A DNA stretch of 64,000 bases, taken from Phocaeicola dorei (GTDB taxonomy: Bacteria > Bacillota_I > Bacilli_A > RFN20 > CAG-826). The notes beneath the pieces are model-generated. The model was not told where the DNA came from. It made no database searches and was given only the letters and a program-made list of their open reading frames with translations. Positions 1 through 49,502 of this stretch are shown here, piece by piece. The first letter of the stretch is position 1, and every line of letters begins with the position of its first letter. The translations under genes and the position numbers were made by a program. The stretch covers positions 15,913-79,912 of the forward strand of contig CAVGUB010000111.1 of the NCBI GenBank assembly GCA_963632375.1. Direction: 5' to 3'.

Positions 1-1
1 A

Positions 2-19173: not shown

Positions 19174-19389
19174 ATGGGAATTTTTTGGACAATTGTTGTT
19201 TTGTTTATTATAAGTTTATCCTTTCTTGCTGGAGCATTGGCTGGAGTTGCCAACTATCTAGCTGCTTCAGAAGAAGCTCCTAATAAGTTATATTCTGATT
19301 GGGAAAAACTTAAACAAAATAAATATTTCATTAGTTATAAACAATACGTAAAAGACGTAATTAAAAAGTATCAAAATACATTAAAATAA
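19174..19389 (+). CDS. small membrane protein (71 aa, one TM segment)
   Basis: Hydrophobic N-terminus (IFWTIVVLFIISLSFLAGALAGVANYLA); last gene of the plus-strand module. Confidence 0.6.
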   Translation: MGIFWTIVVLFIISLSFLAGALAGVANYLAASEEAPNKLYSDWEKLKQNKYFISYKQYVKDVIKKYQNTLK

Positions 19390-24123: not shown

Positions 24124-27100
24124 TTAACAATTATATTCAATTTTACTTTTCTTTGTTGGATCTTCAGCGTTTTTAATCAAAATACGTTTAATTGTTTTCA
24201 TTTCTTGATCTAATCGCATATCAGATAACAAACTATTTTTATCTGTATTAAATAAATTAGAATGAAAATGTTGCATAAAATCAGAAAGATTGGTATTCCC
24301 TAATTTAGCACGATCTGTATCAGAAGGTACTTTTGAATTAAAAATATCATTGATGATTTGAATAATTTCAAATTGCATATCTTTAACTCAACGTTGCGCT
24401 CCAAAATTATTTTTAAATTTAGTTGTAAATTGATTTGACATAAAAGCAACTAACAACTCTTCTTTAAAATCAGAACCAACATCTTCACTATACTTTTCAC
24501 GCATTTCACGATACTCTTTCCTCATTTTTGTTTTATACAAATCTACCACACTATCCAAGGAATTATAATAAAGATTTCTTAATGTTTCGTTCTCACTAAA
24601 TTTAAGTCCAGCACAATATAAGTGCATTAATTCATGAACTGTTGTATCAACAGACGCTCTATGAACATTAATATAAATTTTTCCATTATCCAAGAATGCG
24701 GAGCTATTTCTAATTCGAACTCAATCATTAAATGATCGATATTTTATCGAATAAGAATCAGGATCTTCTTGATATTTTGCATAAGAAGGTAATTCTCTAT
24801 CGTCAAATATCACAATATCACTATCTTCATTTTTACCAACGGTTAATCCTAGTTTATAGGACATTGCATTAATAACTTCTCTAACAATTGTCTCAGAGTT
24901 TCATCTAAAACATTGAGCTGAATTATAATCACCAGCATAATTTGCTTTATATGCACCATTAAAATGAGTTGATAAACAAGGCATTTCTGATGTTCAATCA
25001 TTTGCATTAATAACCCCAATTGCAATTGAGCTCGGCTTATCCGGAATAGGATTTCCGAAACTATCAGCAAATATCAATTCTGATATTGCACCATCAGCAC
25101 CTTTGGTTAATTGAATATTGAATTTCCTTGCTGATTTAGGGTCAAATGCAAGTTTGCGTAAAAGATCAAATATATTTCCTTCAAAATCACCTCATTCAAA
25201 CTGACCATCTTCATCAAAGAATAAATCATCATTATCTTTTAGATGTTCAATTCCTTTGGCATCTGCATACTTTATGAAATTAGAATATGAAGTAGCTAAA
25301 TTATCTACTGATGTATTTATAACACCTTCAAGTAAACGTGTAAATCCTTGTTGCGTATATCCATTTTTATATACTAATACATTATATAAAAATAGTGCAT
25401 CCCCAAAAGTCATGCCATTCAACTCAGGTATTTGTTCATTTGCAAGTTTAGTAAATGCTTTTAATATATCGGAATAAATAATACTTAACTCAACATTTTT
25501 ATCAGCTATCATGGAATTAATAGTCAATTTGAGATGGTTTGTTGTTTGATTATGGGTCTTATTTAACTTAGGCGCTATTGTAATATTATTGAAAAAAGCT
25601 TTAAATGCATCATTGTCTTTATAACGTTTTTTCAAAACATCGATAAGTGAATTTTCAAAGTAATGAACAAAACTGGCTTGACCCTCAAAAGTATTTAATT
25701 TTATTACATTTGCTTTTTCTTCAATATCTTTTTCTTTACATTTAGATATTTCAAAATTAGAATATTTATCCTTTTTATAAAATTCTTCACCAAGAGGTAA
25801 ATTAAATTCTATATTTTGTTTTAATAATCAATTTTCAAGAATTAAATCTCTAACATATCTATCAACTTTTGCAAATTCATCATCAGTCAATTTTTGAGTA
25901 AGAGATGAACCTTCCTGATTATACTCCAACAACGCATTGGCTAATTTTATAGTCAAACGATTTTGAACAGAATGTTCAAGTAAATTATACCCTAATGCAA
26001 TTTGTTTAAACATTTCTGAAAAATTAGGAGTAGAAATAATTGTTCTCAAAATATTGTTCGAACTTTTTATTGTTTCATAATTATTAATCCAAGTTGCTTG
26101 ATACTCTGAATCTGACAGAAATTTAATTATACTAAATGTTTCACTTGTTTTAGGCATATATGCTTGTCATTTCTTATTAACAAAATTATTTATCCTATTT
26201 ATTAATTTAACAAAGTCAGTTAGATTTGTTTTTAAACCTTGGTTTACACCTAGCATTGAACCTAAAATAGTTTGTTCTTCAACACCTGGTAAAATTAGTT
26301 CATAAAAATTATATAAATTATTCACAGAGTTCTTGTCTGTAACCGCTTTTAATGCAGTATTTTTAGGTATCAAATAATGTTTTAAGAATTTTGCAATAGT
26401 TGTTAAGGTTTGTTTCGAAAGTTTAAACTTATCATCTTCTCCAAAATCGTGTGAATCTTGGCTAGATGATAAACCTTCTAAATCATCCTCATATTCACTA
26501 AACATATCGTAGTCATTATGCATACCTGAATCAAGATCCATCATTTCTTGTTCTGTAGGATCTAAATTTCCTCCATCAAAACTCATATCATCTTCATAAC
26601 TTTCATCATATTCATTACCATATCCACGTCCCCCAGTATTTGATTTAGAAATAAGATAATTAACGTGTTTAAAGAGTTCTCGTTCAATACTTAATGTGGT
26701 ATCTAGTTTAGAAGAATCAAAGCTTCTTGTTGCAACACCAAATCCAATATCAATAATTAGATTTATTAAATTTTTCCTAAAAACGCTATCTTTTGCATTA
26801 AGCCCCGTTTCTTTATTAAACACTTCTTCTTCATTTACTAAAGGTACTTCTCGAGGAATTACATGCCCTGATGCATCCAATTTAAGTTTACCATCATCAT
26901 CTGTTTCATATAATAGTTTATCAATGAAACAATCATTTGAAGGTTCACCCTCTTTTGCATAAGTGCCAACTAATATTTTTAAGTCTCGATTCGAAACTCC
27001 ACCTAATGTACGTAATCCTAAAATAAATTCGATTGCACTCTTTTTGTTGATACTAGTATTAACATTATCGAACACATTACTCTTACTATATTTTTGTACA

Positions 27101-30100
27101 AGTTGCATTGGTTCCGACATCATTATATCTTTAATCGTTTTTGGATTTGTACCTATAGAAATTAAGTAACTTCAAGCATCTGCAAAATCAACAGTTGCAT
27201 TAATTTTACTAAGAATCAACTCCTTAGCATTATCTGTTGCAGCTGACAACAAACCAGATATTAATGATGCGGCATCAATTTCTTTTGTATGACTAACAAC
27301 ATCATTGAAGTTAGTTAAATAATTAGCTGGATTAAATGTATCGGTTTTAAGTGAAGTTATTGGTTCCATATTAACATTTGCCAACATACAAGTATTTTTG
27401 GTTATCGGATGAACAAATGTTAATATACGTCATAAATTAGATGCTTTATTATAATCACCTAAACGTAATGCTGTTGCAATTTGATTAACCATTTGATTGG
27501 CTGCAGTTGATGTTGCAAAGAATACTTTCATTCCCACAGCAGTAATACCAATTACATCTTTACCCACCATATTCTGCATTTGCATTATAAATTTAACTAA
27601 TGGATTATCACTAGTCATCGATAACTCAGATGCTGCCAGAAATGAATTTTTAGCAATCTCTTTAAATACAGCCATACTATCATCAACCGATTGGTGTGCA
27701 AATGGTAACAATCGTGCATGTTGAAGAAGTGTTAAAATTTGATGTACAACAGAATTACGTAAAGCAATTTCTGCATTGCGATTTGATAATTTACTTTTGC
27801 TATGTGTGTTCAAAATAGAAACAAATGTTTTTGCTTCTTGTTTTGAAACATCTGGAGTAAAAGAGATTGGCCCATTACTTTTCAATAAACAATCCTTCAA
27901 TTTAGATAGATCTCTAAAGTTTATTACATTGTCTACAATATCTTTAGAAACTTGATAAGCTACACTATTAGTACCTGTTGCATAATATTCTACACCATTA
28001 GGTTTTGGTAAACTCATTACTTGATTTATATTTTCAATAGATTGACATTGATATGTTAATTTACTGAAGTTAATCAAAGAGCCTTTAGACGATAATTCAT
28101 AACCCATCAAATACAATTTATCAATATCATAGTCAGAACCTTGTAACCAAGTAATTTCAGCTGGCATATAAACTTCATTATACCTACTATTAGTATATCC
28201 AACAACTTTCATTCTTGAAAAGGATTGCATTGATTGTGTAGGAATACGTGCTCCAACAAATTCTAATTGCTTTTGGAATGCAACATATTGATTTATAGCT
28301 AACCTCTCAATCTCAATTTCTTTTTTATATACTTCTTCTGTATTTAGAGACTTTATTAACTCGTTTAAATCTATATCGCCAATAAAAGTTCCAGCTTTTA
28401 TCGAAGATGTTACCGAATATTCTAATTGGTTAGAATTTAATTCAGTTTGTTTTGTTCCAGTAAGAGTATGGAAATTTAAGTCTTTAATAAACTTGTATTC
28501 GTCGTTTACTAATTTATGGCTTATCAAATAATCAACAAGATTCCCTCTTGTAAAATTATATGTCACTCTATTATATTGGTCGGAATCCAAAAATTCTTCA
28601 AGTTCTGATCAATCGTTTATTGTAACCATATAATTAGTTGACCCAACACCAGGTGCCGAATAAAATACTTTCCCATTACCACTACAAACATATTTATTGT
28701 TGTGATAAATATCTCCATCAACTTCTTCAAAAGATGCAGCGTCTTTTATTCAATTTTGTTGTAAAGGTGTTTGTATCTTTTTACCAGTAAGAGGATCTGT
28801 TTCCATATGTAATTGATTAATTCTTACATATAAATTCTCACCATTAGCACCTTTTAAAATAGCATCGTAACTATTTTTATCAATATTGCTATCAACTAAT
28901 TGTTCTGAATTTTTTATTTTATTAACAAAGAATTGTGCATCTGTAACATCTGCAATATCTTCATCATCATTTAAATTAAGCTGATCTTTATTGACTTTTC
29001 CCATGATAATTTCTGCTGCTCGAGTTTTTACATTACTGATAGTAAACTCATTTTTAAATGCATTATAATCAGCTGTTAAATCAATCCCATATGCTTTCTC
29101 AAATTCTTTTAATGAGGTTTCTTCTTTGATAATATTTCTACTAAAATACACATCTTTAAAAAGTTTTTGCAAATCATTCAAAGAATTATTGTTAACTAAA
29201 TCAATTACTTTTTCGTATGCTATCCCTGATCCATCGAATATAGAATTATATCCAATGTAATTACCTTCGTCAATTAATTTTAAGTCTTGATTAACAGCAG
29301 CTTTAGCTATATTCAATGCTTCGTCTCTATTATAATCATCAAGTGTGAAACCTGTTACACTAGTTATTAAATTTAATTGTTCTGCTGTTAAATTTTCAAA
29401 TTCAGCAATATAATGTGTAGCTCTAACAGAGTCTAAATCATAAATAGAGTATGTTTTACCTTTGACATCAAATGTAGTATCAGATCCACGTAAATCGTGC
29501 GGTGCTAATTCATGTTTAAATATTAGCTTATTTTGACTATCATGTTTCGCTTTATCGTAGTTTTCTCAACTATCCAAACAAATCTGCTCAATCTCTCCAT
29601 CTTTATTAACAAGATAAACAGTATCTCCCATATCTAACTGATATGGTTGTACTAATTTAATAAATGGATTTTCAAATGTCTTTTCATTAAAAACTGAAAG
29701 CAATTTTCCATTTTGATATTTGACATCACGAGATGTCAATTGATCGATAGTAAAGTTTGATAATAAGACTTCTTCCCGAATTTTTCTACACAATGTAGGA
29801 TATGTCATTGTATTTCCGTTATAATTGAAAAATTGAATCATACCTCTAGAAGGAACCTGGACAGATGCAATACCTGCATATTTTCTTCGAATCCCCTTTT
29901 TATTTAGATTCGAAATTATAGTAGCATTGAAAATTTTAATAGTTGTCGGATCACTAAATGGAATTTGGATTGTAGCATTAGGATTTTTAGAAAGTTCTAT
30001 TGCGGCTTTAGTTAAAAATGCTTGTGCCATTCCCATAGTATCACGTGTATTGTTAGAGAATGATTTTAAGAACTCTTGCCCCAATATTTGATGTAAATTA

Positions 30101-33100
30101 GTAAAGTCACCTTCCCCAACTAACATATTCTTTTCACGAAGTGATTGTTCAACAACATTACCGATTTCTTTATAAATATTAATTGCTTCATCTGTATAAT
30201 ATCCCGATTGAATCAAGGAGCTAATCATCTGGGACATCTCAGTTACATCAGTATCATCGCTTAAAACATGATCTGCATCCATTTGAACTCCACCGAAAAT
30301 TAAAGACATTTTTGTAGTTGTTAAAGCTTCATTGTTTTTCCAAGTATCACGTGTATTTATATTACAAGCTCCAACCTTTATTGCAGATTTGTTTACTAAA
30401 TATGCACACATATAACTCTTTAAATCTTCTACACAAACTATATTGGTGCAAATTCTATTGTTAACGTTACTCCAAACTAAAGTATTAGAATTTTTGTCTA
30501 ATTGTTTTGCTCAAGCTCCACCAAAAATTGAATCAATCGCATAAATACTATCAATACGAATAGGATTTCGATAAACCTGGGATGTTGCTCCGGATTTAGG
30601 TTCTCCGTTTTTATTGACTTCAGTTTCAAATACTTGGTAACAAGAGGTTTTTACGTCAGAAGGATTGGGTACTAAAATTAATTTATCAATTCTATAAAGT
30701 TTCCCTGTAACAGGATCTTCACGATAAATAAACTCTTGTTCACTTACATTTCTTCCAGCAACATTATATCCAAATTTTTCACCCGGTTTGTAATATTTTG
30801 ACAAATCAACGAATTTATCAAATTTCATGTTATGCATTTTATAAAAGACGTTATCCGCACTAATATCACTTGCTCTAGAATTTCTACGTCTTTCATTTGT
30901 CAATGCATAAACAGCCCATTTAAGAAGTTTTGGACATCCTGTTTTAGGGTCTACATCTCCAAAGATTGTCTTCTTATCTCAACCCACTTTTGCATCAAGT
31001 AATGACATATTTTCTAACATAGATTGAATTGGAGAAGATCAACCTGCTCCATCCATTGCATCTACAGAAGATGTTTTTCCCAACATATTAAATACATCAG
31101 CTTGATAATCATCAATAACAGCATAACGTATATCTGAATTTATTCCAAATACATCTGGGTAAAAAGTATGAGTTGTAGCACCTGCAATCACAGTTCTTTT
31201 AAAGGATGAAGATAAACGACTTGCTTCAGCAGATCGAAAATATGATTCAGGTCAAACTTTATTTTTTTCTTTATACGCTATTTCTTTATCACTCGGTTTA
31301 TATTTATTTGGATGAAAAAATGTTTTTCCAAAAATTAAATCATTATATCCATTTGAAAGAAAAACATCAGATAAAAAATATGCACTAAGCAGAGGATTTA
31401 TTTTATCATTTACCTTTAATTTCATTTCTCCGGTAGTTGAATCAAATCATTCCTCACCAATTGTGTTTCTTAATTGCGAATAAGTAATTTTATCAACAGA
31501 GTCATCAAACCTAAAATCATTTTCTTCTAGATTTTTAATAAATTCATCAGATTGCTCTTTAATACGATTCTTAAATGATTTGCGTGTATCATCAAGAACA
31601 TACATATTTATATCATGTTCCAATGTTTCATTAAATCCAGCTTTTGAATAATGCATTTCTTCAATGAAATCCAAACCTTTATTAGAAAATGCTTTTCTTA
31701 CATTATCTTTAAAAGATGAATTTGAAATTGTATCAATAATGGTTTTAATCGCATTAAATTTATTTTTTAAATAATCAGTTTTAGATTCATTTTCTTTATC
31801 TCAAGCAACTGTTAATTTATCCAAATTCTCAATGACTGTTGCAAGTTTTGTTTTTTCCGAGTCTTTTATAACAGACTTTGCAAATTCATCGGACTTAATC
31901 ACATCAGATACAGCTATAAAATCAGATATAAGTCTATTTAAAATTTTACTATACTCTGATTTGCGTGCATCATAAATAGCATTTATCATTGTGGATACTC
32001 CCGAATTGTGCATTTTTGAATCCGTTGATAATATATTACTTAAAATAGTTTGTAGGGTTTGACCTCCAATTTTTAAATTCTTATGATAAGGGATTAATCA
32101 ATGTGTGTTTTTATCAGAGAAACAACTGTTTTGTAAATATATATAATTCTCAGCATTATCTTTAAACCCAGTATATGATTTAAAGAATTCATATATAATA
32201 GAACATTGTGCTAATTCAGATACAGTTAAATCCCGTGCAGATTTTTTTCTTCCATTTATATTTACATCAAGTCTTACTCTAGGTGCTCCAATATGGGTTC
32301 CAAATTGTTTATAAACCGGATGATCACTGAATATATTTTCAGGAGTTTTGGTTTTCATATTAGTGATCATACGAGGCATTTGATTGATTAAAGATGTAAG
32401 ATTATATGATGCCACGTTATTTCCAAAACTATTTCGTTGTGTATTGGAAACATTCAACCCCCAAGCTAAGCCCAAAAAGTCTGTGGCTTTTTGTATAGGT
32501 GTGGAAAATTGTCTCGTTTTAAATTGACTTTTTATAGGATCATTAGCTCCATTTTCCCAAAAAGATTCATCCGTTAATTTATTTGCACTAGAATCAGATG
32601 CTAATAATGTAATTCCAATTGGTCCGACAAACTCATTTCACAATTGTCCAACTGTAGATTTTCCACCACCTAATTGTTGAAGAATTGAATCATAATTTAA
32701 CGGAATATTGATGTCTAATATATCTTTAATAATTTCAATCGCGATTTTATTAGATATAGTAATTCCTTTCCAAGTAATATTATTATTATCACCTAATTTC
32801 AACCTACCTAATTCAACGGCGTCTTTATCCGCTCCCCTTTTAAATACAACATCATTTCCATCAATAGATATATGATATTTATCCTTTAAATCTTGTCATG
32901 CTTTTTTATTATTAAATCGGAATTTGTTAATAGCAGCTGTAATAGAGTCTTGTATATGATAAAGTGCGGAACTTTTATAATTGTCTTCAATTTTCTTTAA
33001 AGATATTGTATTATCATGATTATTAATAATAACACCACGATTCTTATCTGTTTTAAACATTAAATTAAAGAAACAATTTTTGATTTCAGATTGAAGATCG

Positions 33101-34224
33101 GAATTTATTAATGCATTAATACCCAATGCAACTTCAACATCAACATCCTTCATATTGCCCAATCTAGCAACATTTATAAATGCACGAAAAACTTCTTTTA
33201 AGTTTGAATCCGCAGTTTTTGCACTTTCTCTTGAATTAACATCGACACGTAAAACAGATGCTTTTTTCTTTTCTAGTATGCTTTCCGCTTCAGAACCAGT
33301 TAAACCCAAATGAGTTATATTCATACCATTATTAATCCATTCTTTAAATGAATTCATAACCATATTAAATTCTGGAACTGTTAAAGTCGAATCTAAAATA
33401 GCAGTATTATTTTGATTGTATTTATGAAAAGATTCAATTATTGCAACAGTGAGATCACTCATTTGACCTTCTATATCGACGTCTTCCTTGGTTGTTCATG
33501 TTTTGAACATATCAATATTCGCCCCCTTATACTCATATTTATCCCCAGCTTCATTAATATTTTTATATTTAGGATTTACTTTAATATACGAAGCTTGGTT
33601 TTCTAATAAAGCATCAAAATTCTTTAATATCGTATAAGCATCACGAGCATCTAAAAAAGCTTGTGATGTTCTGCCACCCTTATAATTATCAAATGCAGCA
33701 ATAGCTTCATTCATAATAGAAATAAATTCAGAAGCTGCTGTAAAAGTTGTATACTTACCAGGCGATACCAGATTTCAAATTTTGTTTACAAGTGACGTTT
33801 TGTAAGTATAAATATTTTCATTTAAAATATTTGAAAAAGAACTATTGGTACTTTTAACATTTGCATAAACAATTCTATTTTCGTTTATATTAAATATTGA
33901 TACTTCCAACATTTTTCTTTTGAAGTCTCTGAACATTTTCTTCAATAGATACGAATCACCATCGTAATTTATATCCAAAAACGTATCCTTTTTTGCAAAC
34001 TGATTTACAGTTGGAATTTGTTTTTCTTTTACTGGTGCCTTTTTAATACTTAAATCAGCAAGGGTGATATTTTCACCCTTGCTATTAATTAAGTTTATTA
34101 TATCATCGGCATTTTCGAACTCGTTTCTAATTTTATCCTCTCAATCATCACGATATTTGGCTCAACGCAAAACCGTTCTTAAACCTTTTTCATCATTTAA
34201 AATATGTTTACTTACACATGCCAT
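24124..34224 (-). CDS. giant virion RNA polymerase-containing protein (3366 aa), crAss-like DPBB RNAP; about 25 in-frame TGA
   Basis: 17 track ORFs (24124..24378 up to 33775..33978) share one frame, and all gaps contain only TGA. ATG 34224 is preceded by an in-frame TAA at 34228; TAA stop at 24124. GARIPTQSMQSF (28219..28254) and SDYDIDK (DxDxD, 28120..28134) parallel the NRAPTLHRxGIQAF and NADFDGD signatures of beta-prime. Confidence 0.85.
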
Positions 34225-34236: not shown

Positions 34237-37200
34237 TTAACAGTACATTATTATATTCGAAGTATCGTCTTCGTCGTCTAAAATATCAAGTGCATCTTGT
34301 ATTTTAATTTTAGTATCTCCTTCTATACCAATATCTTCAAGCATTTCATACATATCATCAACAAAGTTTTCTTTATTGTTCATAAAGTTTTGAATTGCTT
34401 CCAACTTTTTACTTTGACTAAGAAATCCATTTTGAATCAAAATATCAAATTGCGCTAATGCTTCTGGCGAAATTAATCCTAAATTATCTAAATATACATA
34501 ATCATATTCAATTGAATTGTTTGTAAGATGTACAGTTATAGTTTCTCCTGATTTATCTATCTTAACGTCTTTAGCATCTTCAAACTTCTCATTTATTGCT
34601 TTATCAATTTTTGATTCTAATGTTTCTTCAGTTGTAGTAGTTGGTGTTGTAGTAGTTGGTGTTGTAGATAATTCTTCTGTTTTTATTTGATAATCTTCAG
34701 ATATATCATCTTTTGTTATAGTATATTTAACGCCATCCGCTTTAGATAACAACTCACTAGCCATATCTAATATTTCAACCTCCGACATATCCGTACATTT
34801 TTCAAAAACTTCTTTAGTTAAAATATTAGATTTGTTATCTCCAAAGAGTAAGAACAAATTTAATAATTTATCTCGAATTTCTAAAGGATTTACTGATAAA
34901 GTTGTACTAGGTTTTACTTCTGATGATGTTGATTTCTTAAATATTTCCTCAATATCGCTATCTTCTATTTTTTGAACAGGGTGTGTTGACATATCCATTT
35001 TATAAACAGGAGGCAACATTTCATCAATATTACTAAATCGAGTATTGATCAGGGAATTACTTATACGTAAATCCGCTCATCTTGTTTTTGAACGATCTGT
35101 AACAGTAGCTTTAGCATCGTTTAATTTTAAACCAGTTTTAAAATAAGTTTCTCTGAAACAATCCTCAAATATATCAAAATCTAATATTGGCATCTTCTTA
35201 AAGAAGTGGAATATTAAGTCCCAATCCATCATAGGATAAATGTTGCGTCTATGTTCTTTTGGATTAGAAACTTCATTTTTGAGTTCAAATAATATTTGAT
35301 GAGAACGTATGTTATTATCATTATATTCAAGAGCAAAATTTTTATTTTTTCCTGTTTTATTAATTCCTTCAACAACAGCTTGTAATTTAGAATATAAAGT
35401 TTTTCCACCAGATTTTACACCTACGGCAGGTATATGAGCTATGCTAGCATCTTTTTTATTCTTCGTAAAACGTCAGCTACCTGTATGAGAGTTATCATCG
35501 TTGAGGATTTCTTCATATACGTTATATACGTTATTTTTACTATCATATCTGACAGCATAGCTACGATATTGTTTACCTTTGTTAAAAGTAACAACTAGAC
35601 AAGGGTAATTAATATTTCCGCTCCCGCTTTTAGATGGTATTTCCCTTTGGATTAATTCAAATACATTGTCTTCAAATTGTGTGCACAAATCCATATAATT
35701 TGGGTTCTTTGGATTTTGTGTTGCAACTAAAACTGAATTAAATAGATGCTTAGCAGCAGCAGGAACAAGTAAACGATACTTTGTACGTAAATTATAAATG
35801 TTTTCTGCATTAACTTTTGATTGTTCTAATGCACTACCTCCATTTAATAAATCATATTCAAAATCACCTAAAATACCTTTAACATAATTAATGGCATTTA
35901 CTTTACTTTTTCCTGAGAAAAGAGCTTGTTGTGTCGAGTTAAGTATTCCGTAATTTAATCCTGAAATATATTTTACAACCCATGCTGTATTTATTGCATC
36001 AAATATAGAAATTACTCTATGATTATCGATTAATTGTATAGGTGCGCGAACAACGTCTCCTTCAGTTCCATCAGCTCTATTGTTTAATTTACCCATTACA
36101 ATTGCACTATTAGTTCAATTCTCATCCTCGGGATTTTCTTGAATGTCTGTATTAGTATATCAAGCTGTTTTAGTATTGGCTGTTTGTTTATTACTTCATA
36201 TTTGGTCAAAGTCTTCGTCAGTAAGAATATCAATAGCGCTTCATGCGGTGAATGTTTTACCACTATTTTCCTCTTTTCAATCACGACACTTTGATTTATA
36301 ATATGATCCATTCTTGTTATTATCCCCAAAATCATCTTCATCATTTGGAGTAAAAACTTTTGACTGACTGTAAAGAGAACCATACCGCATTTTATTTATA
36401 CTCTTGTCTAAACTCCCGGTAGTTGTTACCATTTCACTTGGTGTAGCAATATTGAATAAAACTTCACCTTGTGGCACAGTTATAACACCCCTAAACTTCT
36501 TATTTAATGTACCAATTGGTATTAAATAATTTTTATCATGTACCGTTAATGGAAGATATAAGATCGAACGATCCAAATTTGTAATAGCTTTGACGTATAA
36601 TTTATAGTCACTACTACATGTTATATTTCATGCATCACAAAAAGCTTTTGCAAATGATGTAGATACATTTGAATATGAGGCTAATTTTTCAACGTGTCTT
36701 TGCTGCAAACCCATTCCTATAGATACACCTGATGAAAATAGTCTAATAAAAGTTTTAAATCTTTTGTGACCATCCTCACCTTGAAATTCTTCAAGATTTA
36801 ATAGACTATATTTATTTTTCTCTTCTTGAATTCAAAACTGTGATTTATCGGAATCTAGTTCATCAATAAATGCTTTACGATCATAATATATATTATTTCC
36901 TTTATTAATAGACATTTTTGATGATTTATTTACACGATCTCTAGAAACTTTGCCATCTGTTTCAACAGAAGTTGACACTTTACTTACACCAGAGCCAATT
37001 TTTTCAGATGCAGATTTGCCAGTAGAAGTATATGCAGTTACACCATCTGCTTCATCATCTTTCGATGTCGTTTCTGTTGCAAAAAACGAGTTTGATAAAC
37101 TATCACTTGGTGTAGACCCAGGCTTAATTATGACATCATTGGGTGCAACCTTTTTACCTTTAGCTTTACTTTTAGGTTTAGATCCTGATCCTGATCCTGG

Positions 37201-40200
37201 TTCAGTCTCTGGTTCAGTCTCTGGTTCACGCAACAATCATTCATTAACGAAATCATACCATTTTTGTAATTCAGTGGCATTTCCAGTTATTGCAGTAGGT
37301 GCCGAAGCAATAGATGCATCTTGTGCTACATTATTGATATTTAATGGGTTTAACTCGCCGGAATCATCAACAATAACAACACCTTGTTTAGCACGACTCA
37401 ACATAGTATTGAAGTCCAATACCATATTGTACATGATATCAGAATCAAAGTGTTTGTCGACAATAACATAATCAAATTCCCCACCTTGTACAGCATCCGC
37501 ATTTATTAATTCAATATTACTATGTGTACTTACTATACTTTTGTATTTTGATTCGTCATCTGTGATAATTGCAATAGTTTTATCTGAACCAAAATTAGCA
37601 AAATCATTAACATAATGATTTACGATATCACTTTTAATGACTTTACAACCTACAAAGTTTTCACCCGGTTTTTCATAATATACTAAATTAAGAGATATAT
37701 CTTTAACGTCTTCAGATACAAAACTTAAAAGATAGTCCTTACGACTTTTATGCTTTTCGACAAATCGATTTGTTAAAACATCAGAAGCAATAGCATTTTG
37801 CTGTACAGCAGAATTTTCACTTCTAATTATTGCAGTTAGTTCTGGGAAGATTGTCATTATACAATCATCTGTTGATGAATAACTACCTTCAACTATTTTT
37901 CCATTTTGTTTATAATCACCTGTCATTAAAACAGTTATACCTCTAGCTTTTGCTCATTTTGATAAAATTTGTAATTCGGCACCAGATATAAATGTGCCTT
38001 CATCAATTACTAAATACTTAGGATTTAAACCGGTATATAAATCTGCATCAGTTCCAATAACATTGATATCATCATTATCATAAACATGCAACGCTTTTCC
38101 TTTAAATTTTTCTGGTCTTTTTGGACAAATTTTATCAAGTAGTTCAGAAATTGTGATAGCATGTTTGTCGTCAACACCTGTTACATTTTGTAGATTTTTA
38201 ATTTGTTTTTCATGTGGAGCAGCAACAACAAATTCAGATTTATCATTATTTGCTTTTAACAATTCAACAACAAACCTATCAATTATTTGAGTTTTTCCTG
38301 TTCCAGCAGAACCTGGTAAGAAACAGATATTTTCAATTAAAGCAAGATCTTGTAATATGGAAACCTTATCAAGCCCAGATGTTTCTTTTATATATTTGTC
38401 AACTTTTACATCATGTAATTGTTTTGTTATTTTATTAAAAATTTCTGGATTTTGTAAGAATGAAGATACTAATACATTTGATATTTGTTGCCCCCATAGT
38501 GGAGATAATATATGATCCGGATTTGCTTTATTATAAGTTTTGTATATACCATCAAGTTTCTTAAATTGATCTTGGAAATCAACAGTACACATACTAGCTA
38601 AAAATAACGCATTGGCATAAGGTGTATTTTTGCTTTCCTTGTTATCAGTGTAAGAACCGGACAAATTCAAAAATGAATCATTAGGTAATCATTCAACAAT
38701 AGTGTTTACAATAGAATCAATTGAAATTTTCTTGCTAGTAACCTCATCATATAAAGCATGCGCAAAATCCATAAATGCTGTAGTATACGTAGTTATATTA
38801 CTTCATGCGTCTAATTCTCCGCCATGTGCTTTATTCTTTCATATATCCTCTAGATCAAGTCCTATCGATTTTAATTTATCTGATAATGTTAAACCTTCTG
38901 TATTTTTATCAGTAATAAAACCTTCTATAATAGATTTTTTATTAACTATTTCTGAGTTTTTATGATATGTGATTTTTTGACCCTTGTTCTTATCAGATAT
39001 AGCAATTAAGCAATTAGCTTTATCTGTTAGATAAACTAATTCAGATTTAAGAAAATTTTTAGTTACATCAGTTATTTCACTTGTTAATGCGTCTTTCTTA
39101 GCTTTTTTCCTATATATATTTAATACTTCTGTATAGCCATTATTAAATGGACTTAACAATGTATTTAACATTGCACAAACTTTAGGAACATTTCTTAAAG
39201 CTGCATCATAACTAGGATTATTAATTATGTATTTTTCTATATCACCTAGACTATTTAAAGTATTTTCTTCCTGTGATAATAGATCAATGACTTTTATAGT
39301 TGATTCCCCAACATTTAATTCAAAATTTCTTAATAAATCAACAATACTTAAAGTTGGAATACTTTCTTTAAGTTTTGCCACTTCGTTTACGAGCGTTGTG
39401 ATATTAGAAAAACGCGATGCGTTAAAAATTACTTTATCAATTAAGTTTGGCAATAATTTATCGCCTTCTTCTTTTAATTTATTTAACTCCGAAACATCAA
39501 TTCTTCCATTTGCTAAATTAGTTAGAAGATTTAACAGCTTTAATTTAAATTCATTTAAAACGGTTTCATCTCCTGTAAAACTTCTTGTTGCTTTAGCAAA
39601 AGCGGAATTAAACATAAGCGCATTCGACAATGGACTACAGGCAGTTGCAATTACTCGTTTAAAGAAAATATCATTATCAGAAACAATTTTTTTATCACGT
39701 AACTTAGTATAAAAATCAATTAATATGTCGTGTATTGCTTTATTTGTAGTTTTTATTTTTTCACGCAATACATCTTGAAGTTCATCATAAGTTATTTTTG
39801 AATCCAATTTATATTTATCGATATATTCTCATAAATCAATACCTTCAGTTCCATCTATTCCAATTAATGTATCGAAATCGTTAGATAAATCCTGAAGATT
39901 TAAAAGTGCATTAGAAATAGGTGTGGCTAATTCCGTTTTACCCAATTCAGTTAAAGATTCTGAAACCAAACTATATTTTTTATATATATTATTATACCTA
40001 TTAATGGCCTGTTGTAGATTGTTTTGTTTTTCTGACAAATCCCTTATTTGATTTTGAAAAGCGGTAAATTCTGTATTTAGTTTCAATTTAGCATCAACTT
40101 CAGATTTAAGATCTGCAAAAGTTTCAACTTCTGGTGTAATTTCACCCGCATTAAGCATATCTTCTAATTCTTTAAAGTTTTTGCCTTTTATTGAATCATA

Positions 40201-43182
40201 TTTTCCAGAATCGATTAGTTCGTCATAAGTTGCTTGTATCAATGCATTTGATTGATCTAAAACACTTTTTAATTCAGTATTAACAGTTAATAATTCAGCG
40301 GAATTTTTTTCATATTGAGAAAAATCCTTAGAACCGACATGTAGTTCATCATGTAAATAGTAACTATTTTCATTTAAACCTTTAGACTTTTCATTCATCT
40401 CCTTAATTCGTGGAGACATTCTTTCCAAATAATAATAATATAAATCTGATTCGAATTTTAAACGATCAACATCAGCTAATTTAAGATTGCTAAATTCAGA
40501 TTTCATTCTAGACTTTTCAGCATCAGACAACTCATTGAAGTTTTTATCATACATTGTTTCGGTATAATGTTCTACTGAAGTTTGCCAATATGATTTTTCT
40601 TCTTTATCATCAAGAACAGATTTTTCAAAATTAGCTTGTAAATCCTTAGAAGTCATATAAAGAACTTGACTTGCATATCTATCATCATTACGATGGAAAA
40701 GCAAATCATTTCTTTGTTTTTCAAGTTCTTTAATACGTTGTGTATAATATTCTACATTCTTTTGTTTCTTCAGATTTTCAGATTCTGTTTTCTTTTCATC
40801 CTCTGTTGAAACACCAGGTTTAGATGCAGTTAATTTATCGAGTTTAGATTTATTATCAAGATAATCCTTTCCTAGTTTAGTTATATCACTTAAATATGAT
40901 GTATGAAATTGGTATGTTTTAATTGTTTCAAGTAAAGCATTAGTCTTATTATTCATTAAATATTCATCAGCAGAAATACCTAAATCTTCCATTTCTGCTT
41001 GTTGTTTATCTAATTCATCTTTAAACTTCTCATCAAATTGAAGCATACCCAAGCCTGCCATTAATTTTGATGAAGGGTCTAATAGACTTTGTCCATACAT
41101 TATATTTAAACCAAAATCATTCAATGTATTGCTCATATATTGTATTCCATTTTTGAGCATACTATACATAGCTAAATTTTGATTATTGTCAGATGTACCT
41201 TTTGCGTAAAGTGTTTCTTCTTTACCTTCTTTGTTTTTCCTTTTTCTTGTTTCAGTTGCAGATAAGTTAGCATCTCCTAAAACACCTTTTTTATATAATA
41301 CATCCAAACGATCCAATAATTCATTAGTTCGCCCAGTTGCAATCATATACATAACTTGTTCATTAGAACTCAAATCCGTCATTTGTACGACATGTGGGCC
41401 GAATAAACGTTCATATTGATTTAAGCCTTCAAACACAGCACCACCCAAGAAACCTCCTATAAAGTTTTGTCCATAACGTGTTAATATACTATTAAAATCA
41501 AAGCCAAAATCAAGTTTCTCGGTATTCTTGTCTTTAACATCAATACCCAAAGCATTAGCACCTGCAAATAATGATTTAACTGCATCAGTCGATACTTCCT
41601 CCATCATTTCCTCAACACCCTCATTAAATGCACGGTTAATCATTTTAGATCCTATACCTCATGCTTTAGTAGCAGAATTTGAAGATGTCAAACTTTGCAC
41701 TTTACCAGATATAGGTTTAGATAAGAAACGTTGTCATGCTTTTGTAATACCGTTTGAAATAGCGTTATAATGTTTTACTGCTTGTTTTGGAGTTAATACA
41801 CCTTCTTCAACCAAATTTTTCAATGCCGGTTCTCCATCAGTTTTTACTCAGTTTTTGATAACTTCTACAGCCTCTGATTCATCAAGAACTCCACCTTTAA
41901 ATAGTTGATCTCTAAAATAGTCTTGATTCATCAAACCATATAAAGCACCTATTGATGCAAGCATACCAATACCTGCCGCAGCATCTGATGCTCCAGCAGC
42001 TTTAAAATCAGAATATGTTTGTTCGGATGATGTAATAGCCATGAAACCTAATGAAAGATTTCTACCTAAGTTAGATGCTTTTTGAACATCATTCATTTTA
42101 GCCAAACTATATGTAATTTGACCTAAGGTTTTTTGGGAATACAATTGTGATGCAGATGACGATAAAATATCTGCTATACTTTCAAATGATAGAAAACCAC
42201 CAGCTCTTGCTTCGTCAGATTGAGAACCCATAAATTTCTGAAAGAAATTCTCACCTTTAGTAAGACCTTGGCCTATAGCTCCAGAATTATCCCCAAATAT
42301 ACCATTGATTGCTTTCCCTAATGTAGGGGCAACACTTGCTAAACCGTAAACAACACCAATCGCACCCATTACAGTATTAACGCCTGGAATTAGATAAGGT
42401 GCTAATTCTACAGCAGTTTTCATTAATGTTCCACCAATACTTTTGGTAAGACCATCTGAATCAAAGAAATCAAATTTATTTAATGTAGTACCGTCAACGG
42501 TTAATGTATCGGTATAATGCAATACATCTCTACCATAAGATTCTCTATTACCAAGAATCTCATAATAAGCATCCCCATTTTCATCAAATTTATAATCACC
42601 TTTCTTATGGGTTATAGTAGTACCGTTTATGACTTCTGTAGTATCCTCGTCATACACTGCTAAAGCCAAAGTAGGATCCGCAAGAGATTTAAAAATACCA
42701 CTATGTTGGTTCGGTGTTCAATCTAATACATTACCTTTTTCATCGCGTACATAATTATCCTGTGCAATTTCACGGAGACTAAAAACAGGATCAGACATTT
42801 TCCCTATTCCCTCAATACCTACAGCACGTCTATCAGGTGTATATGGTGTTGTTACAATCGTTGCACTAAGATCCTTAATTTCAGTTTTTAAAGGCTGTGT
42901 GTAGTCAAAAGGATCTTTAGCCATTTCATTAATCACCTTATTTGTCCAATCAGTTGAAGAAAATTCATTATACATACTTAATGCACTATCGTAAAAAGTA
43001 TTAAATGTTTCCTCATCAAACTTTCCATCTTTTTGGAAAGTTTCTTGTACTGTTTTGTTGTTTTTATAATAATCAATTGATTTTAAATCCGTATTTTCAG
43101 GTGTTATTCCATGCTCAAACACTTCATCAACTGACGAAGGTTGATTATACATCAATGTAGCTATTCAATCATTATTTGCCAT
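34237..43182 (-). CDS. giant multidomain virion-module protein (2981 aa) with an internal SF1 helicase core; about 20 in-frame TGA
   Basis: 10 track ORFs (34237..35019 up to 42718..43155) share one frame, and all gaps were read with only TGA. ATG 43182 is preceded by an in-frame TAA at 43195. SF1 motifs: GSAGTGKT, VVAAPHEKQ, LVIDEGTF, LMTGDYKQ, VQGGEFDYVIV, LSRAKQGVVIV. Confidence 0.8.
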
Positions 43183-45059: not shown

Positions 45060-48000
45060 TTATTTCATTAATTTTTCTAACATTCTATTAAGATGTTGTG
45101 TTGCAATTTGTACAGCTCGTTTAGCTTCTCTATCACCCTGAATCGCCATTTGTGCTAAAGGATCCGCTTTTATAGAAGTTTTTCCACCTTGCTTAAAAGA
45201 AAAAGTTTGAGCTGGTCTAGTTACATAGCGTTGGTTTGTGTCATAAATGGATTTCTTATACTTATTTTGTAATTGTTTAACAATCGGTGAGTTCATAAAA
45301 TTTGTATAAGCAGTTCTATTAGCATCACTCAATATTCAATTATCAAATTCTGCTTTATTCTCAGTTGTATCAGCTTCGTATGCAGAATCAAATTGGGTAT
45401 GCAATAGCTTGTCTAATTCGTCATTATATTTACTTTGTAAATCATTTATTTCATATGTTTGAGCAAGATCATTCTTCTTATTTCAAGCATCACGATAATT
45501 TTGACGTACCTGATACATATAAGGATTTACATTATTTACTCACTGTTCTTGCTTCTGACTCGCATCAAGTTCTGCACCACGGCTTCTTACATTGGCAAAA
45601 TATTGAGATTTTTGATTAGCTGCTTGTGTATCTAATGAACGTTGTTTATTAATTCTTTCAACATCTTGTGCATTTCAAGAATCTACATATCTTGTTATAT
45701 TATCACCTTTTTGTTGTTCTATATTAGATATTTTGTCAGCACGTTGTAATTCTCCCGCCATATTTGAATTGACATCAGATGAATTAAACTGAATGTCTCT
45801 ATATGGATTTTCAGCTAACCTTGTAGAGTTATCAATACTAGCTGTTGAAAAACGTTGACCCTCAAGTCTTGGTGTATCAAATTTAACAGAATATAAAGCA
45901 TTATTAGCTTTTTGTTTATCCTTATAAACTGAATTTACAGCAGCAACATTACTAATCATTGAGCCCAAATCCATTAAATTAGGAATATTTGCTTTTAGCG
46001 CTTGCCCAAAAGAACCACCGCTGAACTTATATATTTTACCACCTTTACGTAACATTATACCTCCATCTTGTAAAGATCCAACTTGCTTTGGTGTTTGTTG
46101 TGATGCTAAACGTACTCTAGATTGTGGTACTAAACGTGGTACGTTAGATCGTGATACTAAACGTTGTAATCTAAATCTAGATTGTGCTGCTAAATGTGGT
46201 ACTTTAGATTGTGGTACTGAAGGTTGTACTTTAGATTGTGGTACTGAAGGTTGTACTTTAGATTGTGGTACTGATCTTGATCCTGCCATATTTCTTCATG
46301 CACGTCAATCTCAAGAACCTTTTTCAAAAGTATCTGGTTTAAATAAATGTGGATATTTATATGCTAAATCACGTAAGTAAATATCTCTAGATGAATTATG
46401 CTTCAATATAGATGTATTAAAGTCTTTAGCTGCACGATTCAAATCACTTGCTGAAATATTTTGTGCAATAAATTTATCAATATTTTGATTTCCAAACCCA
46501 CCAAACATATCTCTGACAGCATATCCTATCGTAGAACGAGCTTCTGGATTAGATGATTCAAATGTAGCTTCTCCTATTCTATCCGTAACTTTTCTATTGC
46601 GATTATACCAATGACCTGATTTTTCAGATTTATTGAATTTAATTCCAAATGAATCCAGTGCTTTTTTAGCATCACCATCTGATAGTTCAATACCCAAATC
46701 TTTGGCTTCAGATTTAACTTGTGCAATAAGTTCCTTCTTAGAACCATTTGCGGATTCAACCATTTCTTGAATCTCAGAAGCAGTTTTCTTTAATTCCTTA
46801 TCACCAACTTTGGCTGTATGCTTAACTTCATCAACATCTGCTAATGTGTCCTTAATCAAATTTCTTTGACCAATGCCTTTACGTATTGATTTTGCTGCAC
46901 CAGCACCGAATAAAATACCAGAAGATAAACCTCTACCTAAATCAACTAAATCTTGAGATGTTAAATCTTCTCCAGAGATAACCTTTTTAAGTGGATTTAT
47001 CATTGATGTCATACCTGCTACCGTAGCAAGAGTCAACAATGGTTTGGCAACTTTACGTATACCTGCAATAGCTTTTGCAGATTTTCCAGCTTTTGCAAAA
47101 ACTCCAGCTAAAGGTATCATAGACGCAACATCTAAAGCAAGTCCAATTGCTAAATCTTTACCTGCCCCAGAAACACCTGATTCACCTTGATTTCCTTGTG
47201 CCTTATCGGCTTTATAACGAAGTATACTACCTCCAATACCAGATAAACCTCCAACAATATTTCCAATTGGTCCAAACATACTAGCACCAACTCCAGCCAA
47301 ATCTAAACCTGCTGCCATTAATTGTTGTTTTTCAGCAGTAGACAAACCACCGTCAGAACCATTAAGTTTGTGGTCTTTGATTACATCCTTTTTAGCATCA
47401 GTTTCAAAAGTTTTAGTCCTTGTTGTAGGAGCAAGAACTATTCCACCATATTGTAGTTTAGATAATTTATTTCAATCAATTTTACCCCCATTCGCACGCT
47501 TTCCTAATTTGGTATGTACGTTACTAATGTGTGGGTTTTCTGTTTCTTGATAACTTATACCCCTGCTTTTTACTTTAGATAATGCTTCTAATTGGGATGT
47601 CGTTGCTTTTTCCCCATTCATATATCGTTTTAACAATTCCATATTTTCAGGTGCAACTTTAACTGGTGCATGATTGTCACCTCAATAAATTCATGTATTA
47701 CCCTCTCTATCGGAAGCTATTGTGACGTCTTGACCATTATTTCTAAATGTACGTTTTACACCCAATTCTTGGTCACCACGTCATTGTCACGCGCTTGGAT
47801 TTAAGGCTTGGCCGGATGTTGCATAACCTGCAACTTTCCATCCTGTAGCATTTGCCAATGCTTCTCTAGAATCAAATTTATGAGCAGTACCATCCGCATC
47901 AAAATAAACATATTGTGGAACATATACCCCAGCATAATTACGTTTAGTTGGATCCAAATATGCATACACTTTTTGCCCTTCTGGAACACCTTCAAAGAAA

Positions 48001-49502
48001 CCTGTTGCATCGACGTGTCCAGCTCCTTTTATATTATTTGTTCTATAAAAATCATATAATTCTGGACTGTATTGTGTATCGGAATTATAGCTAGTATATT
48101 CACCATAATTAGATTTATCATCAGCTGCAAATCCGTTCCAAATTCTATCACCCATAAATCGAACCTTACTAGCATTTGCTGCATCGTATCAAGCTGCTCA
48201 ATCAGGTGAATTTTTATTACTAATAAAACTACCAATATATTGAGCATACAAATCAGGGTGAGCAATGATTTCATCTCTTGTTCTGAGTATTCCATTTACA
48301 AGGAAACCGTTTTCGTATTTAGTACCTTTAAATGGTGCAAGCCTTCCCAAATACCAATTTTTATAATCCCCAAAGATACCTCCGTTTACACTAAATGTGC
48401 CATCATCGTTTTTAGTAATAGTTGCCCCATTTGAGCCAGCTCAAGAGTCTTTATTCCCACCTCATTCATAATTATTGGAATCGTCAGAATCACCTGATGT
48501 TCCATTTCCACTTGATGCTGGAGTATCTTTTGAGAATCCTATCAGTTTAAGAAAATCAAGATCGTTTTGAGTTGCAGTACCCTTTCGTACTCTATCTTGT
48601 AAATCATTGAAAAATGTTTCTCTATTTTCAGGAGTAAGTCCCACATTACTAAGATATGTTCTTAATCTCTTTAAATCGGATTCATGACCTTTTCAAGCAG
48701 ACATGTCAAAACCTGGGGCGTTCATAATATCGTCAATATTAGAAGATCCATAAATGTTATTAAAATTGTTTTGAACAATGCCCCATTTCGCTTTATTAGA
48801 TGCAGAATCTTCTTCGCCTTCTTTATATGGATCAAACCAACCAAAACCACGATCCCATTTTAATCTAGGACCTTTATATTCAACAGGTTCTTCATTCATA
48901 TCTACATATTTCATATATTCTCCACTACGTTTAAATCTGTCGTTAGCAGTATGAAACGTAGCTTGCATTGTTTTTCTAAAATTAGAATCATTTGGAGATG
49001 CAGAAATACCTTGAGCATATTGGCTAGTAACATTATTACCGTTTGAATCATATACTTCTATAGTATTGTTCTCAGGGTTATATCGAGCTTCATTGCCATC
49101 TTTAATAGCTTTTGCAGCAACATCATACATTCCACGCATTCCAAAGTCAGAAGACGAATACGCATTGTAAAGTCTATCCAATGCTGTTTGTCCAGAGATA
49201 GTTCGTCCATTCATTGTAAACTTACCCAATGTTGGAGCGACAAATTTATCATCGGAAGACATTCCTTCATAATTACCATGCTCTGCATCAGTTTGATTTA
49301 ATGTACTTGTAACAGCTTTTAATAAAGAATTTTCCCCACTTCTATAATCGTCCTTTGTTAGATTATCGCTTCAATCCACACCTTGTTCTTCTGGATTTGG
49401 AATTGATTCATCAATCGCTTTTTCAGCTTGTTTAAATCCTTCTTTACGTGTCTTTTCTAAATCTTGCTCACTAAGTACTCTTTTTTTCTTTTTTTGTGCC
49501 AT
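45060..49502 (-). CDS. giant virion-module protein (1480 aa) with glycine-rich hydrophobic segment and internal 9-aa repeats; about 18 in-frame TGA
   Basis: Track ORFs 45060.., 45675.., 46311.., 47787.., 48462.. and 48693.. share a frame, and all gaps were read with only TGA. ATG 49502 follows an in-frame TAG at 49551 and a terminator hairpin. Confidence 0.75.
46114..46274 (-). repeat. in-frame 27-nt tandem repeat array (about 6 units, 2.7 of them perfect)
   Basis: ACTTTAGATTGTGGTACTGAAGGTTGT occurs at 46201 and 46228, with a partial copy at 46255 and degenerate copies back to 46114. It encodes SVPQSKVQP repeats. Confidence 0.8.

Follow-up and report, generated by a model that had tools for sequence, protein, structure and literature searches.

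A conserved SF1B helicase core within a giant late protein encoded beside a crAss-like phage's virion RNA polymerase

Among the phages of the human gut, crassviruses are the most abundant, and the start of their infection is poorly understood. In particular, we know of no factor that has been shown to open the DNA in vivo for the crassvirus virion RNA polymerase (vRNAP). The window analyzed here, a stretch of 64,000 nucleotides (positions 15,913 to 79,912 of contig CAVGUB010000111.1, assembly GCA_963632375.1), bears on this question, as a giant minus-strand gene at 34237..43182 places a helicase core in the middle of a protein encoded immediately 5' of such a polymerase. What would a helicase do at this position? 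Judged by its sequence and predicted structure, the domain is a complete superfamily 1B (SF1B), RecD-like helicase core within one giant late open reading frame (ORF). It belongs to a very large and previously uncharacterized protein family, and the giant protein is most likely packaged with the virion cargo and ejected.

Under the standard bacterial code (table 11), this region of the minus strand breaks into a string of short ORFs. The frame that runs from 43182 to 34237 contains 20 in-frame TGA codons, no TAA or TAG, and a terminal TAA; translated with TGA as tryptophan (Trp), it forms 2,981 codons in a single frame, which is the product length given in an earlier account of this DNA (hereafter the preliminary description). 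Where the alignment with homologs is good, a Trp or another aromatic residue stands opposite the TGA sites, and we therefore read TGA as Trp and the product as 2,981 amino acids (aa). Throughout the window, each large minus-strand gene contains 14-25 in-frame TGA codons, compared with 0-2 in the likely plus-strand genes; by these comparisons, TGA encodes Trp in the late genes of the phage. The recoding follows both strand and module, with the late minus-strand genes at 19444-64000 and the plus-strand genes (NrdD, Thy1, and others) at 1-19200, and the GC skew changes sign near 19 kb, the point of strand divergence. A search for tRNA genes, and hence for a suppressor tRNA, found none within the 64-kb window.

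The preliminary description had quoted six strings from this gene as a full superfamily 1 (SF1) motif series in order, and all six are present between aa 1622 and 1940 (window 37363-38319). The interval it gave, 37363-38313, is correctly located, but its end clips the first two residues of the motif I string. Motif I (LPGSAGTGKTQII, aa 1622-1634, window 38281-38319) contains the Walker A sequence GSAGTGKT (aa 1624-1631), which agrees with GxxxxGK[ST]. Motif Ia is VVAAPHEKQ (aa 1652-1660, with AAP..Q at aa 1654-1660), and motif II, LVIDEGTFISG (aa 1724-1734), provides the Walker B residues DE at aa 1727-1728. Motif III (ITVLMTGDYKQNG, aa 1749-1761) includes GDYKQ at aa 1755-1759, motif V (DAVQGGEFDYVIV, aa 1896-1908) includes QGGEFD at aa 1899-1904, and motif VI (MLSRAKQGVVIVDD, aa 1927-1940, window 37363-37404) includes SRAK at aa 1929-1932, with the arginine finger.

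Searches with sequence profiles recovered SF1 families, as the preliminary description would have predicted. The Pfam families that scored above their cut-offs were AAA_30 (E=1.3e-13; 51.6 bits, cut-off 27) and AAA_19 (E=2.8e-11; 44.2 bits, cut-off 25.1), while UvrD_C_2 was a weak match below its cut-off (14.6 bits against 27.4). The scan of the full protein returned SF1 helicase families only, and even at E<=1 nothing credible was found in the N- and C-terminal thirds. When a profile built from an alignment of 26 diverse relatives (alignment A1) was compared with PDB sequences, the best match was E. coli RecD (1.5e-9), followed by Upf1/NAM7, Pif1, and coronavirus nsp13. Single-sequence PDB searches with the helicase, the tail muzzle homolog, and the RNA polymerase core (the latter two are discussed below) gave no useful match, and the helicase needed the profile. 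An AlphaFold2 (AF2) model of aa 1255-1985 on the same alignment (predicted local distance difference test [pLDDT] 86.2, predicted template modeling score [pTM] 0.81) consists of a helical domain followed by two RecA-like domains. Foldseek placed RecD of RecBCD at the top of the PDB matches to this model (4.9e-10), together with the alphavirus nsP2 helicase, RecD2, Upf1, nsp13, Ighmbp2, T4 Dda, and Sen1, each of them an SF1B-type enzyme. Because the model matches RecD, RecD2, Upf1, nsp13, and Dda, we assign the domain to SF1B.

The term "RecD-like" is used here as a label for the fold and not as a statement of orthology. The domain has the same motif set as RecD, RecD2, and Dda (GxGKT, DE, GDxxQ, QGxEFD, and a TRAK-like motif), its core is likewise compact at ~360 aa, and a helical domain lies N-terminal to it. 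It differs from these proteins in its position in the middle of a protein rather than as a free-standing enzyme or RecBCD subunit, in its low identity to the solved members (11-17%), and in that the RNA helicases Upf1 and nsp13 score nearly as well. RecD of RecBCD is a free-standing subunit of ~600 aa that is encoded together with RecB and RecC, whereas the domain described here is internal to 2,981 aa. No recB or recC genes were found in the window, where the nearest candidate is a sub-threshold RecB-type nuclease motif in a neighboring protein of 1,558 aa.

To what extent is the helicase a stable part of this protein? A search with the full protein retrieved 241 relatives, and the helicase domain is present in each of the best 120 of these, all of which are 2,490-3,387 aa long and encoded on contigs of up to 181 kb. 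The Pfam lists precomputed for these 120 relatives contain helicase or P-loop families only. For a second search, 1.84 billion representatives of clusters at 50% identity were screened with a profile (A3) covering the first 690 residues; 1,217 clusters matched at E<=1e-3, of which 643 reached E<=1e-30, and nearly all of the top 150 matches were 2,400-3,700 aa in length. The helicase was found in 118/118 of the large representatives newly retrieved in this way (six were detected only with the HMMER filters off), which brings the large relatives checked to 238, all with the domain. Its presence in all of them argues that the helicase is a fixed component of the family and not an occasional insertion.

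The catalytic residues are conserved in nearly all members checked. In an alignment of 104 sequences, K1630, D1727, E1728, G1755, Q1759, G1900, and R1930 are invariant, so that the Walker A lysine and the Walker B aspartate and glutamate are retained in every aligned sequence; D1756 (102/104) and E1902 (98/104) are nearly so. These sequences thus show none of the Walker A/B degeneracy that would have counted against the preliminary description. We rejected the idea of a degenerate relic, as the catalytic residues are invariant. By a BLAST coverage map, conservation is concentrated in two blocks, one at aa 1-900 and the other at aa 1250-1950; the intervening region and the last ~1,000 residues are conserved only in the closest relatives. 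Matches among GenBank phages were few: megablast of the giant gene gave none, and tblastn with the full-length protein as query gave only two among 50,697 phage records, the unannotated gut phages MT835470 and MT835492, one of which encodes an ortholog of ~2,970 aa.

The genomic context of the gene points to a virion function. The preliminary description had placed the helicase in a late, virion-related block immediately 5' of the vRNAP gene, and both statements held up. Homologs of the crAss001 muzzle, ring, and gp45 proteins lie upstream, and the polymerase and a gp47-like protein lie downstream. The polymerase was identified through its homology to crAss001 gp50, itself a putative RNA polymerase, and its DxDxD block, DYDID (window 28120-28134), which aligns as GSDYDIDKLYLM / GSDFDVDKLYIM with gp50. 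The alignment is centered on the catalytic block, with GARIPTQS...EITWLQGSDYDIDKLYLM in the window protein and GYRVPTED...EITTLSGSDFDVDKLYIM in gp50. In a PHROGs search of the giant protein and six neighbors, the muzzle alone was matched, as a "virion structural protein" (8e-25). This homolog anchors the block as a virion tail and cargo module, and the giant gene sits between the muzzle and the polymerase.

The 1,558-aa protein encoded past the polymerase is probably the counterpart of crAss001 gp47. Its PD-(D/E)XK motif (GRLDLLIIDKDGKAHIYDWKTS, window 23248-23313) overlaps the weak gp47 match, and the Pfam family PDDEXK_1 scores just under its cut-off (E=5.6e-4, 20.4 bits against 22). On the basis of this motif, a RecD-like helicase and a RecB-like nuclease flank the polymerase gene. 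Pfam at E<=0.01 gave nothing on the polymerase, the 1,558-aa protein, or the 622-aa protein encoded upstream of the giant gene.

The order of genes in the window is muzzle, small genes, DUF192, a protein of ~1,500-1,700 aa, a protein of ~600 aa, the helicase giant, and the polymerase. The same order recurs at two loci of divergent relatives (L003 and L004), one of which, with a LAGLIDADG gene inside its polymerase gene, encodes a giant protein only 38% identical to ours over the best local alignment. It also matches the gene order of Lera, a phage of the Zeta group (PMC12386605, Table S1), and because of this shared order we regard the window, part of a 143-kb contig, as derived from a Zeta-type crAss-like phage. 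At the equivalent position, Lera (PV725988) has a TGA-containing gene of 8,346 nt that encodes 2,781 aa and is labeled "RecD-like protein", and the gene beyond its polymerase is annotated "exonuclease V" (PMC12386605, Table S1). The Lera protein resembles ours in size class, TGA recoding, and position upstream of the RNA polymerase genes, these being the features on which the two were compared. In Zeta phages, DnaB and SNF2 helicases sit in the replication block (PMC7886860). A role as the replicative helicase was rejected because our gene has a late, recoded context and because DnaB and SNF2 are reported as distinct genes in Zeta phages. The preliminary description had suggested a helicase delivered with the polymerase rather than one for replication, and all of our findings are consistent with this inference.

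The N-terminal module is conserved more highly than any other part of the protein, with 49% mean column identity (alignments A2 and A3). It contains three invariant motifs: DFFDSDG (aa 238-244, window 42451-42471), NEGxEExxEE..D (aa 519/520-533, window 41584-41628), and GGxxGGxxF (aa 576-584). In the second of these, E521, E524, E525, E528, E529, and D533 are kept without exception across 39 diverse sequences. The acidic motifs could form a metal- or partner-binding site or an unrecognized catalytic center. The AF2 model of the module (pLDDT 72.6) has long helices from aa 249 to 600, and comparison with the PDB by both profile and fold found no significant match. Among the predicted viral structures of BFVD, only orthologs and crAss-like fragments matched the model. 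The orthologs are a "RecD-like protein" from Siphoviridae sp. gcode 4 and a "Helicase" from Podoviridae sp. ctz6O13 (8.6e-40 and 5.1e-28 for the N-terminal fold), and the fragments are from "CrAss-like virus sp. ctYsL76".

The glycine-rich hydrophobic regions that the preliminary description had noted upstream of the helicase are located at aa 260-292, 396-420, and 574-586. The first, which alone in the protein is strongly hydrophobic, forms part of a predicted helical hairpin (helices at aa 249-264 and 268-296), the only segment in which the mean Kyte-Doolittle hydropathy exceeds 1.4. P266 and P286 are invariant in this hairpin and G273 is at least 90% conserved, making it a candidate membrane-inserting element. 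On the other side of the helicase, the PETE/GS/K-rich linker that had also been described coincides with a sharp drop in conservation; this segment could be flexible or mark where the protein is processed. The region that follows it is conserved only in the ~35 closest relatives.

Although this C-terminal region is otherwise variable, it nearly always has a cysteine at or near its end. A Cys is found within the last eight residues in 120/120 relatives from the first round of searches and 115/118 from the second, and it is the very last residue in 68 of the former 120, in a family with an overall Cys frequency of 0.21%. In our protein it is residue 2981 (window 34240-34242). The polymerase encoded next to it ends in ...EYNC (Cys codon 24127-24129), and 4/4 homologs of the polymerase C-terminus have a Cys at the C-terminus or 4 residues from it; the ends among these and the window protein include KIEYNC, FIKYDC, and LKEDCSQL. 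In crAss001, the sole Cys among the 2,341 residues of gp47 occupies position -3, and a Cys of gp50 occupies position -10. From these sequences, the giant cargo proteins seem to share a C-terminal Cys, which argues that the helicase giant is handled like the other giant cargo proteins, and the residue may be a signal for packaging or tethering. We found no mention of a C-terminal Cys of cargo proteins in the literature searched. Near the C-terminus of the polymerase there is also an HExxH motif (VHELMHLY, aa 3197-3201, window 24622-24636) that is kept in all four detectable homologs (P0149-P0152; HELMH, HELMH, HEVLH, and HEIGH). It may belong to a zincin-type protease that processes cargo proteins.

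Characterized cargo proteins include those of crAss001, in which gp45, gp46, gp47, gp49, and gp50 were identified in virions by mass spectrometry and are thought to be ejected through the tail in a partly unfolded state (PMC10172136). By analogy with the ejection proteins of T7, gp45 and gp46 have been proposed to form a trans-envelope channel (PMC10172136). The helicase giant occupies the same slot between muzzle and polymerase as these proteins and gp65-gp67 of phi14:2, and like them it is very large, predicted to be mostly helical, and expressed late; the C-terminal Cys is a likeness to gp47 and gp50. An identity as the gp47 or gp49 ortholog was dropped, as neither phmmer nor a hidden Markov model of the full family, which was compared with crAss001 gp45-gp52, gave a significant match. 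The region of crAss001 between 40 and 90 kb, which holds its cargo and polymerase genes, has no helicase, which means that crAss-type vRNAPs do not in general need one to be packaged with them. Together with the two tblastn records in GenBank, this also suggests that the giant protein is specific to one branch.

These observations lead us to propose the following model. The protein combines a conserved N-terminal helical module with its hairpin, a helical adaptor, a catalytically intact SF1B helicase of the RecD/Dda type, and a fast-evolving C-terminal region with a conserved Cys at its end. It would be packaged in the virion along with the rest of the cargo and would leave it before or together with the DNA, as proposed for crAss001 gp45-gp50. 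Once in the cell, the ATP-driven helicase would engage whichever end of the linear genome enters first and translocate 5'->3' on one strand, drawing the DNA in and opening the duplex; held at the entry site, it would also reel the DNA in. The opened duplex would then be a single-stranded template for the co-delivered crAss-type polymerase. The vRNAP of phi14:2 is efficient on single-stranded DNA (ssDNA) and denatured DNA but poor on native double-stranded DNA (dsDNA), and QDE-1, its structural relative, needs RPA and the helicase QDE-3 (10.1101/2020.03.07.982082). We favor this model because polymerases of this class prefer ssDNA, and no simpler source of such a template on a newly injected linear genome suggests itself than an SF1B helicase delivered alongside. 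Taken as a whole chain it is tentative, and we would place its likelihood slightly short of even. Our confidence is much higher for two of its parts, namely that the domain would be an active SF1B helicase and that the protein would belong to the cargo block.

Several points weigh against this model. Packaging is something that we infer from synteny, late recoding, the C-terminal Cys, and the architecture of the protein, with its membrane-like N-terminal module. No homology to the crAss001 cargo proteins was detected (best phmmer E 0.13 or worse in a 7-sequence database), and the scan of the 40-90 kb region of crAss001 found no counterpart of either the SF1 helicase or the N-terminal module. 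A folded protein of ~330 kDa would need to be unfolded for passage through the tail and then refolded. The close fold neighbors include the RNA helicases Upf1, nsp13, and Sen1, and sequence does not reveal polarity or substrate (DNA or RNA). The evidence for the N-terminal "membrane" element is hydropathy and an AF2 model, and the Foldseek matches of this module to transporters were not significant (E 0.13 or worse), so that a transporter fold is not supported. Lastly, Walker A is deviant or absent in two other members of the family, P0211 (GKN) and P0261.

Other readings of the same evidence must also be considered. The helicase could be an injected counter-defense effector, functionally a polyvalent protein, that coats or remodels the DNA end against host RecBCD/AddAB, restriction, or other nucleases, or that strips host DNA-binding proteins, with no role in transcription. 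There is precedent in DarB of phage P1 and in the polyvalent proteins, a few of which have UvrD-like SF1 helicases (PMC5512222). The ~1,000 C-terminal residues evolve fast, as expected of an arms-race interface, and since the closest solved relative is RecD, a mimic of it could interfere with RecBCD. However, the hallmark domains of polyvalent proteins (MuF, LPD, ART, MTase, and zincin MPTase) were not detected by Pfam in our protein and are not listed for the 120 relatives, and the strict position beside the polymerase and retention across a family of >1,200 clusters resemble a core rather than an accessory function. We consider this explanation unlikely, and one in which the protein acts only as an import motor is somewhat less likely still. 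In that case the N-terminal module would reside in the inner membrane as part of an ejectosome channel and the tethered helicase would reel in DNA, with no link to transcription. The conserved hydrophobic hairpin and glycine-zipper-like motifs of the module fit this idea, as does the channel proposed for crAss001 gp45 and gp46 (PMC10172136), and a translocase fixed at a channel would be expected to pull DNA. Membrane insertion is itself a prediction, though, and the 1,480-aa gp45-like protein already carries a transmembrane-type segment homologous to that of gp45. Moreover, SF1B enzymes track on ssDNA, so that import of dsDNA would need strand separation, at which point the idea merges with the model in which an ejected helicase feeds the polymerase.

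The protein might also not be a virion component at all, acting instead as a late helicase inside the cell that makes the phage. There it might, for example, process concatemers, take part in recombination-dependent late replication, or help to load cargo or DNA as heads are filled. What backs packaging is synteny and recoding, and late genes include non-structural ones; several lysis genes of Lera also carry TGA (PMC12386605). Yet the gene is embedded between homologs of crAss001 virion components (PMC10172136), and the size of 2,400-3,700 aa, the membrane-like N-terminal module, and the C-terminal Cys in common with the vRNAP and gp47/gp50 all speak for cargo, while a soluble replication or recombination helicase has no evident need for ~2,500 extra residues. 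This makes an intracellular role improbable in our view. Least probable, and by our estimate very much so, is an injected helicase-nuclease akin to RecBCD/AddAB, in which the helicase would act with the flanking PD-(D/E)XK protein to resect the entering end and produce ssDNA for the polymerase; this would be a narrower version of the model that we favor. A RecD-like helicase and a RecB-family nuclease motif ("exonuclease V" in Lera) do flank the vRNAP gene, and the preference of this polymerase class for ssDNA would be served. Resection would nevertheless cost the phage some of its genome unless confined to a terminal repeat, the nuclease match is sub-threshold (20.4 vs 22 bits), and the protein-protein interaction is purely conjectural. 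A related and bolder proposal is that the three giants (helicase, vRNAP, and PD-(D/E)XK nuclease) are co-packaged as one machine, perhaps tethered through their C-terminal Cys residues, that would, like RecBCD, unwind and partly resect the first end and hand a strand to the polymerase. We regard it as a doubtful proposition; if true, it would explain how early transcription is started by polymerases that barely use native duplex in vitro.

Comparison with other delivered helicases helps to place the protein. P1 DarB is a virion-packaged methylase and superfamily 2 (SF2) helicase, and polyvalent proteins are encoded beside packaging genes (PMC5512222). These are giant, multidomain proteins encoded in late or packaging modules and delivered with DNA, and the helicase domains that some of them have act on the DNA as it comes in; ours shares the size and the late-module context, and its delivery is presumed. 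Unlike DarB, with its adenine methylase, SF2 helicase, and LPD domains, it has a single SF1B helicase and is fixed beside the virion RNA polymerase, and Pfam found no MuF, LPD, MTase, ART, zincin MPTase, or toxin domains in it or in the lists of the 120 relatives. Conjugative relaxase-helicases (TraI/TrwC) also have RecD-like SF1B domains (AAA_30) and cross a narrow channel unfolded, together with DNA, into the recipient. AAA_30 is the Pfam family common to them and our protein, but the setting here is phage ejection and not type IV secretion, and the delivered DNA is presumably double-stranded. No HUH relaxase domain was found in the Pfam scans of our protein.

The domain has already been labeled by annotation pipelines ("RecD-like protein", "Helicase") and in one supplementary table. 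Within the crassvirus literature searched, we found no analysis of the domain, its conservation, or its implications for virion delivery or transcription; the word "helicase" is absent among the cargo proteins described in PMC10172136 and PMC10136315, and the searched text of a metaproteomics paper (PMC9523058) makes no mention of the protein. Injected helicase giants and crassvirus cargo were both known, and what is new is an SF1B helicase fixed beside the virion RNA polymerase in a family of such size. The giant is a concrete candidate for the missing template-opening factor, and more generally for an ATP-driven step of genome entry. Only one enzymatic domain is involved, and it is intact in its catalytic core in nearly all of the large members examined. 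The C-terminal Cys on the largest cargo proteins may also offer a handle on how they are sorted into capsids. The coordinates of the giant gene, its regions, and its neighbors are given in Table 1.

Table 1. Features of the giant late gene and its neighbors (positions in the 64,000-nucleotide window)
Feature	Position	Strand	Details
Giant late gene	34237..43182	minus	2,981 aa; 20 TGA as Trp, TAA stop; family of 2,400-3,700-aa phage proteins
N-terminal module	41113..43182	minus	aa 1-690; no known fold or family; mostly long helices; most conserved part of the family
Hydrophobic Gly/Pro-containing predicted helical hairpin	42295..42438	minus	aa 249-296; hydropathy, AF2
Conserved all-helical domain packed on the helicase core	38356..39420	minus	aa 1255-1609; BLAST coverage map, AF2
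SF1B (RecD-like) helicase core, two RecA-like domains	37288..38355	minus	aa 1610-1965; motifs I, Ia, II, III, V, VI
Low-complexity PETE/GS/K-rich linker	37147..37227	minus	aa 1986-2012; follows the helicase; sharp drop in conservation
Variable C-terminal region	34240..37146	minus	aa 2013-2981; no recognizable domain; conserved in closest ~35 relatives only; ends in Cys 2981
crAss-type virion RNA polymerase, downstream neighbor	24124..34224	minus	3,366 aa; phmmer vs crAss001 gp50 E=6.4e-12
1,558-aa protein, next gene past the polymerase	19444..24120	minus	phmmer vs gp47 E=3.6e-4; RecB-like PD-(D/E)XK motif
Two upstream genes, 622 aa and 1,480 aa	43191..49502	minus	positions of crAss001 cargo gp46 and gp45
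1,480-aa gp45-like protein	45060..49502	minus	match to gp45 transmembrane region, phmmer E=8e-5
Tail muzzle homolog	51801..56294	minus	1,497 aa; phmmer vs gp44 E=4.1e-9
Ring protein homolog	60490..61191		233 aa; crAss001 gp43, E=6e-5
Ring protein homolog	61194..61862		222 aa; crAss001 gp40, E=2e-3

Some further features of the neighboring genes and of the family were observed. The 1,480-aa protein contains a tandem repeat in which SVPQSKVQP occurs three times and is followed by related RxxVPR/QSR units (window 46098-46274, aa 1077-1135), and a long Gly/Ala-rich hydrophobic stretch at aa ~720-800 is the part that matches the transmembrane region of gp45. The polymerase gene of the window is uninterrupted over its 3,366 codons. 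At locus L003 a LAGLIDADG gene (24686-25378) lies inside its counterpart, and in the table for Lera the polymerase gene is likewise split by a LAGLIDADG/homing-endonuclease gene (intron).

The family-bearing phage contigs are roughly 115-180 kb in size, and no cultured isolate of the Zeta group was found in the literature searched. Loci L006-L016 come from metagenome-assembled genome (MAG) bins of the gut assigned to Clostridium, Roseburia (a 172-kb contig), Lactobacillus johnsonii, Erysipelotrichaceae, Gastranaerophilaceae, and Melainabacteria, with no Bacteroidota bins among them. We rejected the GTDB assignments of these MAG bins as a guide to the host, as the sequences are almost certainly low-GC phage contigs that were mis-binned by composition.

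On the plus strand, the gene at window 2543-3304 encodes a match to Pfam PF18909 (E=1.2e-16), the N-terminal domain of dATP/dGTP diphosphohydrolases of the MazZ/DatZ type. It is accompanied by a PDDEXK-like DUF3799 gene (3304-4347), NrdD (5909-8155), and Thy1 (13878-14894), and its location among genes of nucleotide metabolism hints at manipulation of the deoxynucleoside triphosphate (dNTP) pool or at a modified base.

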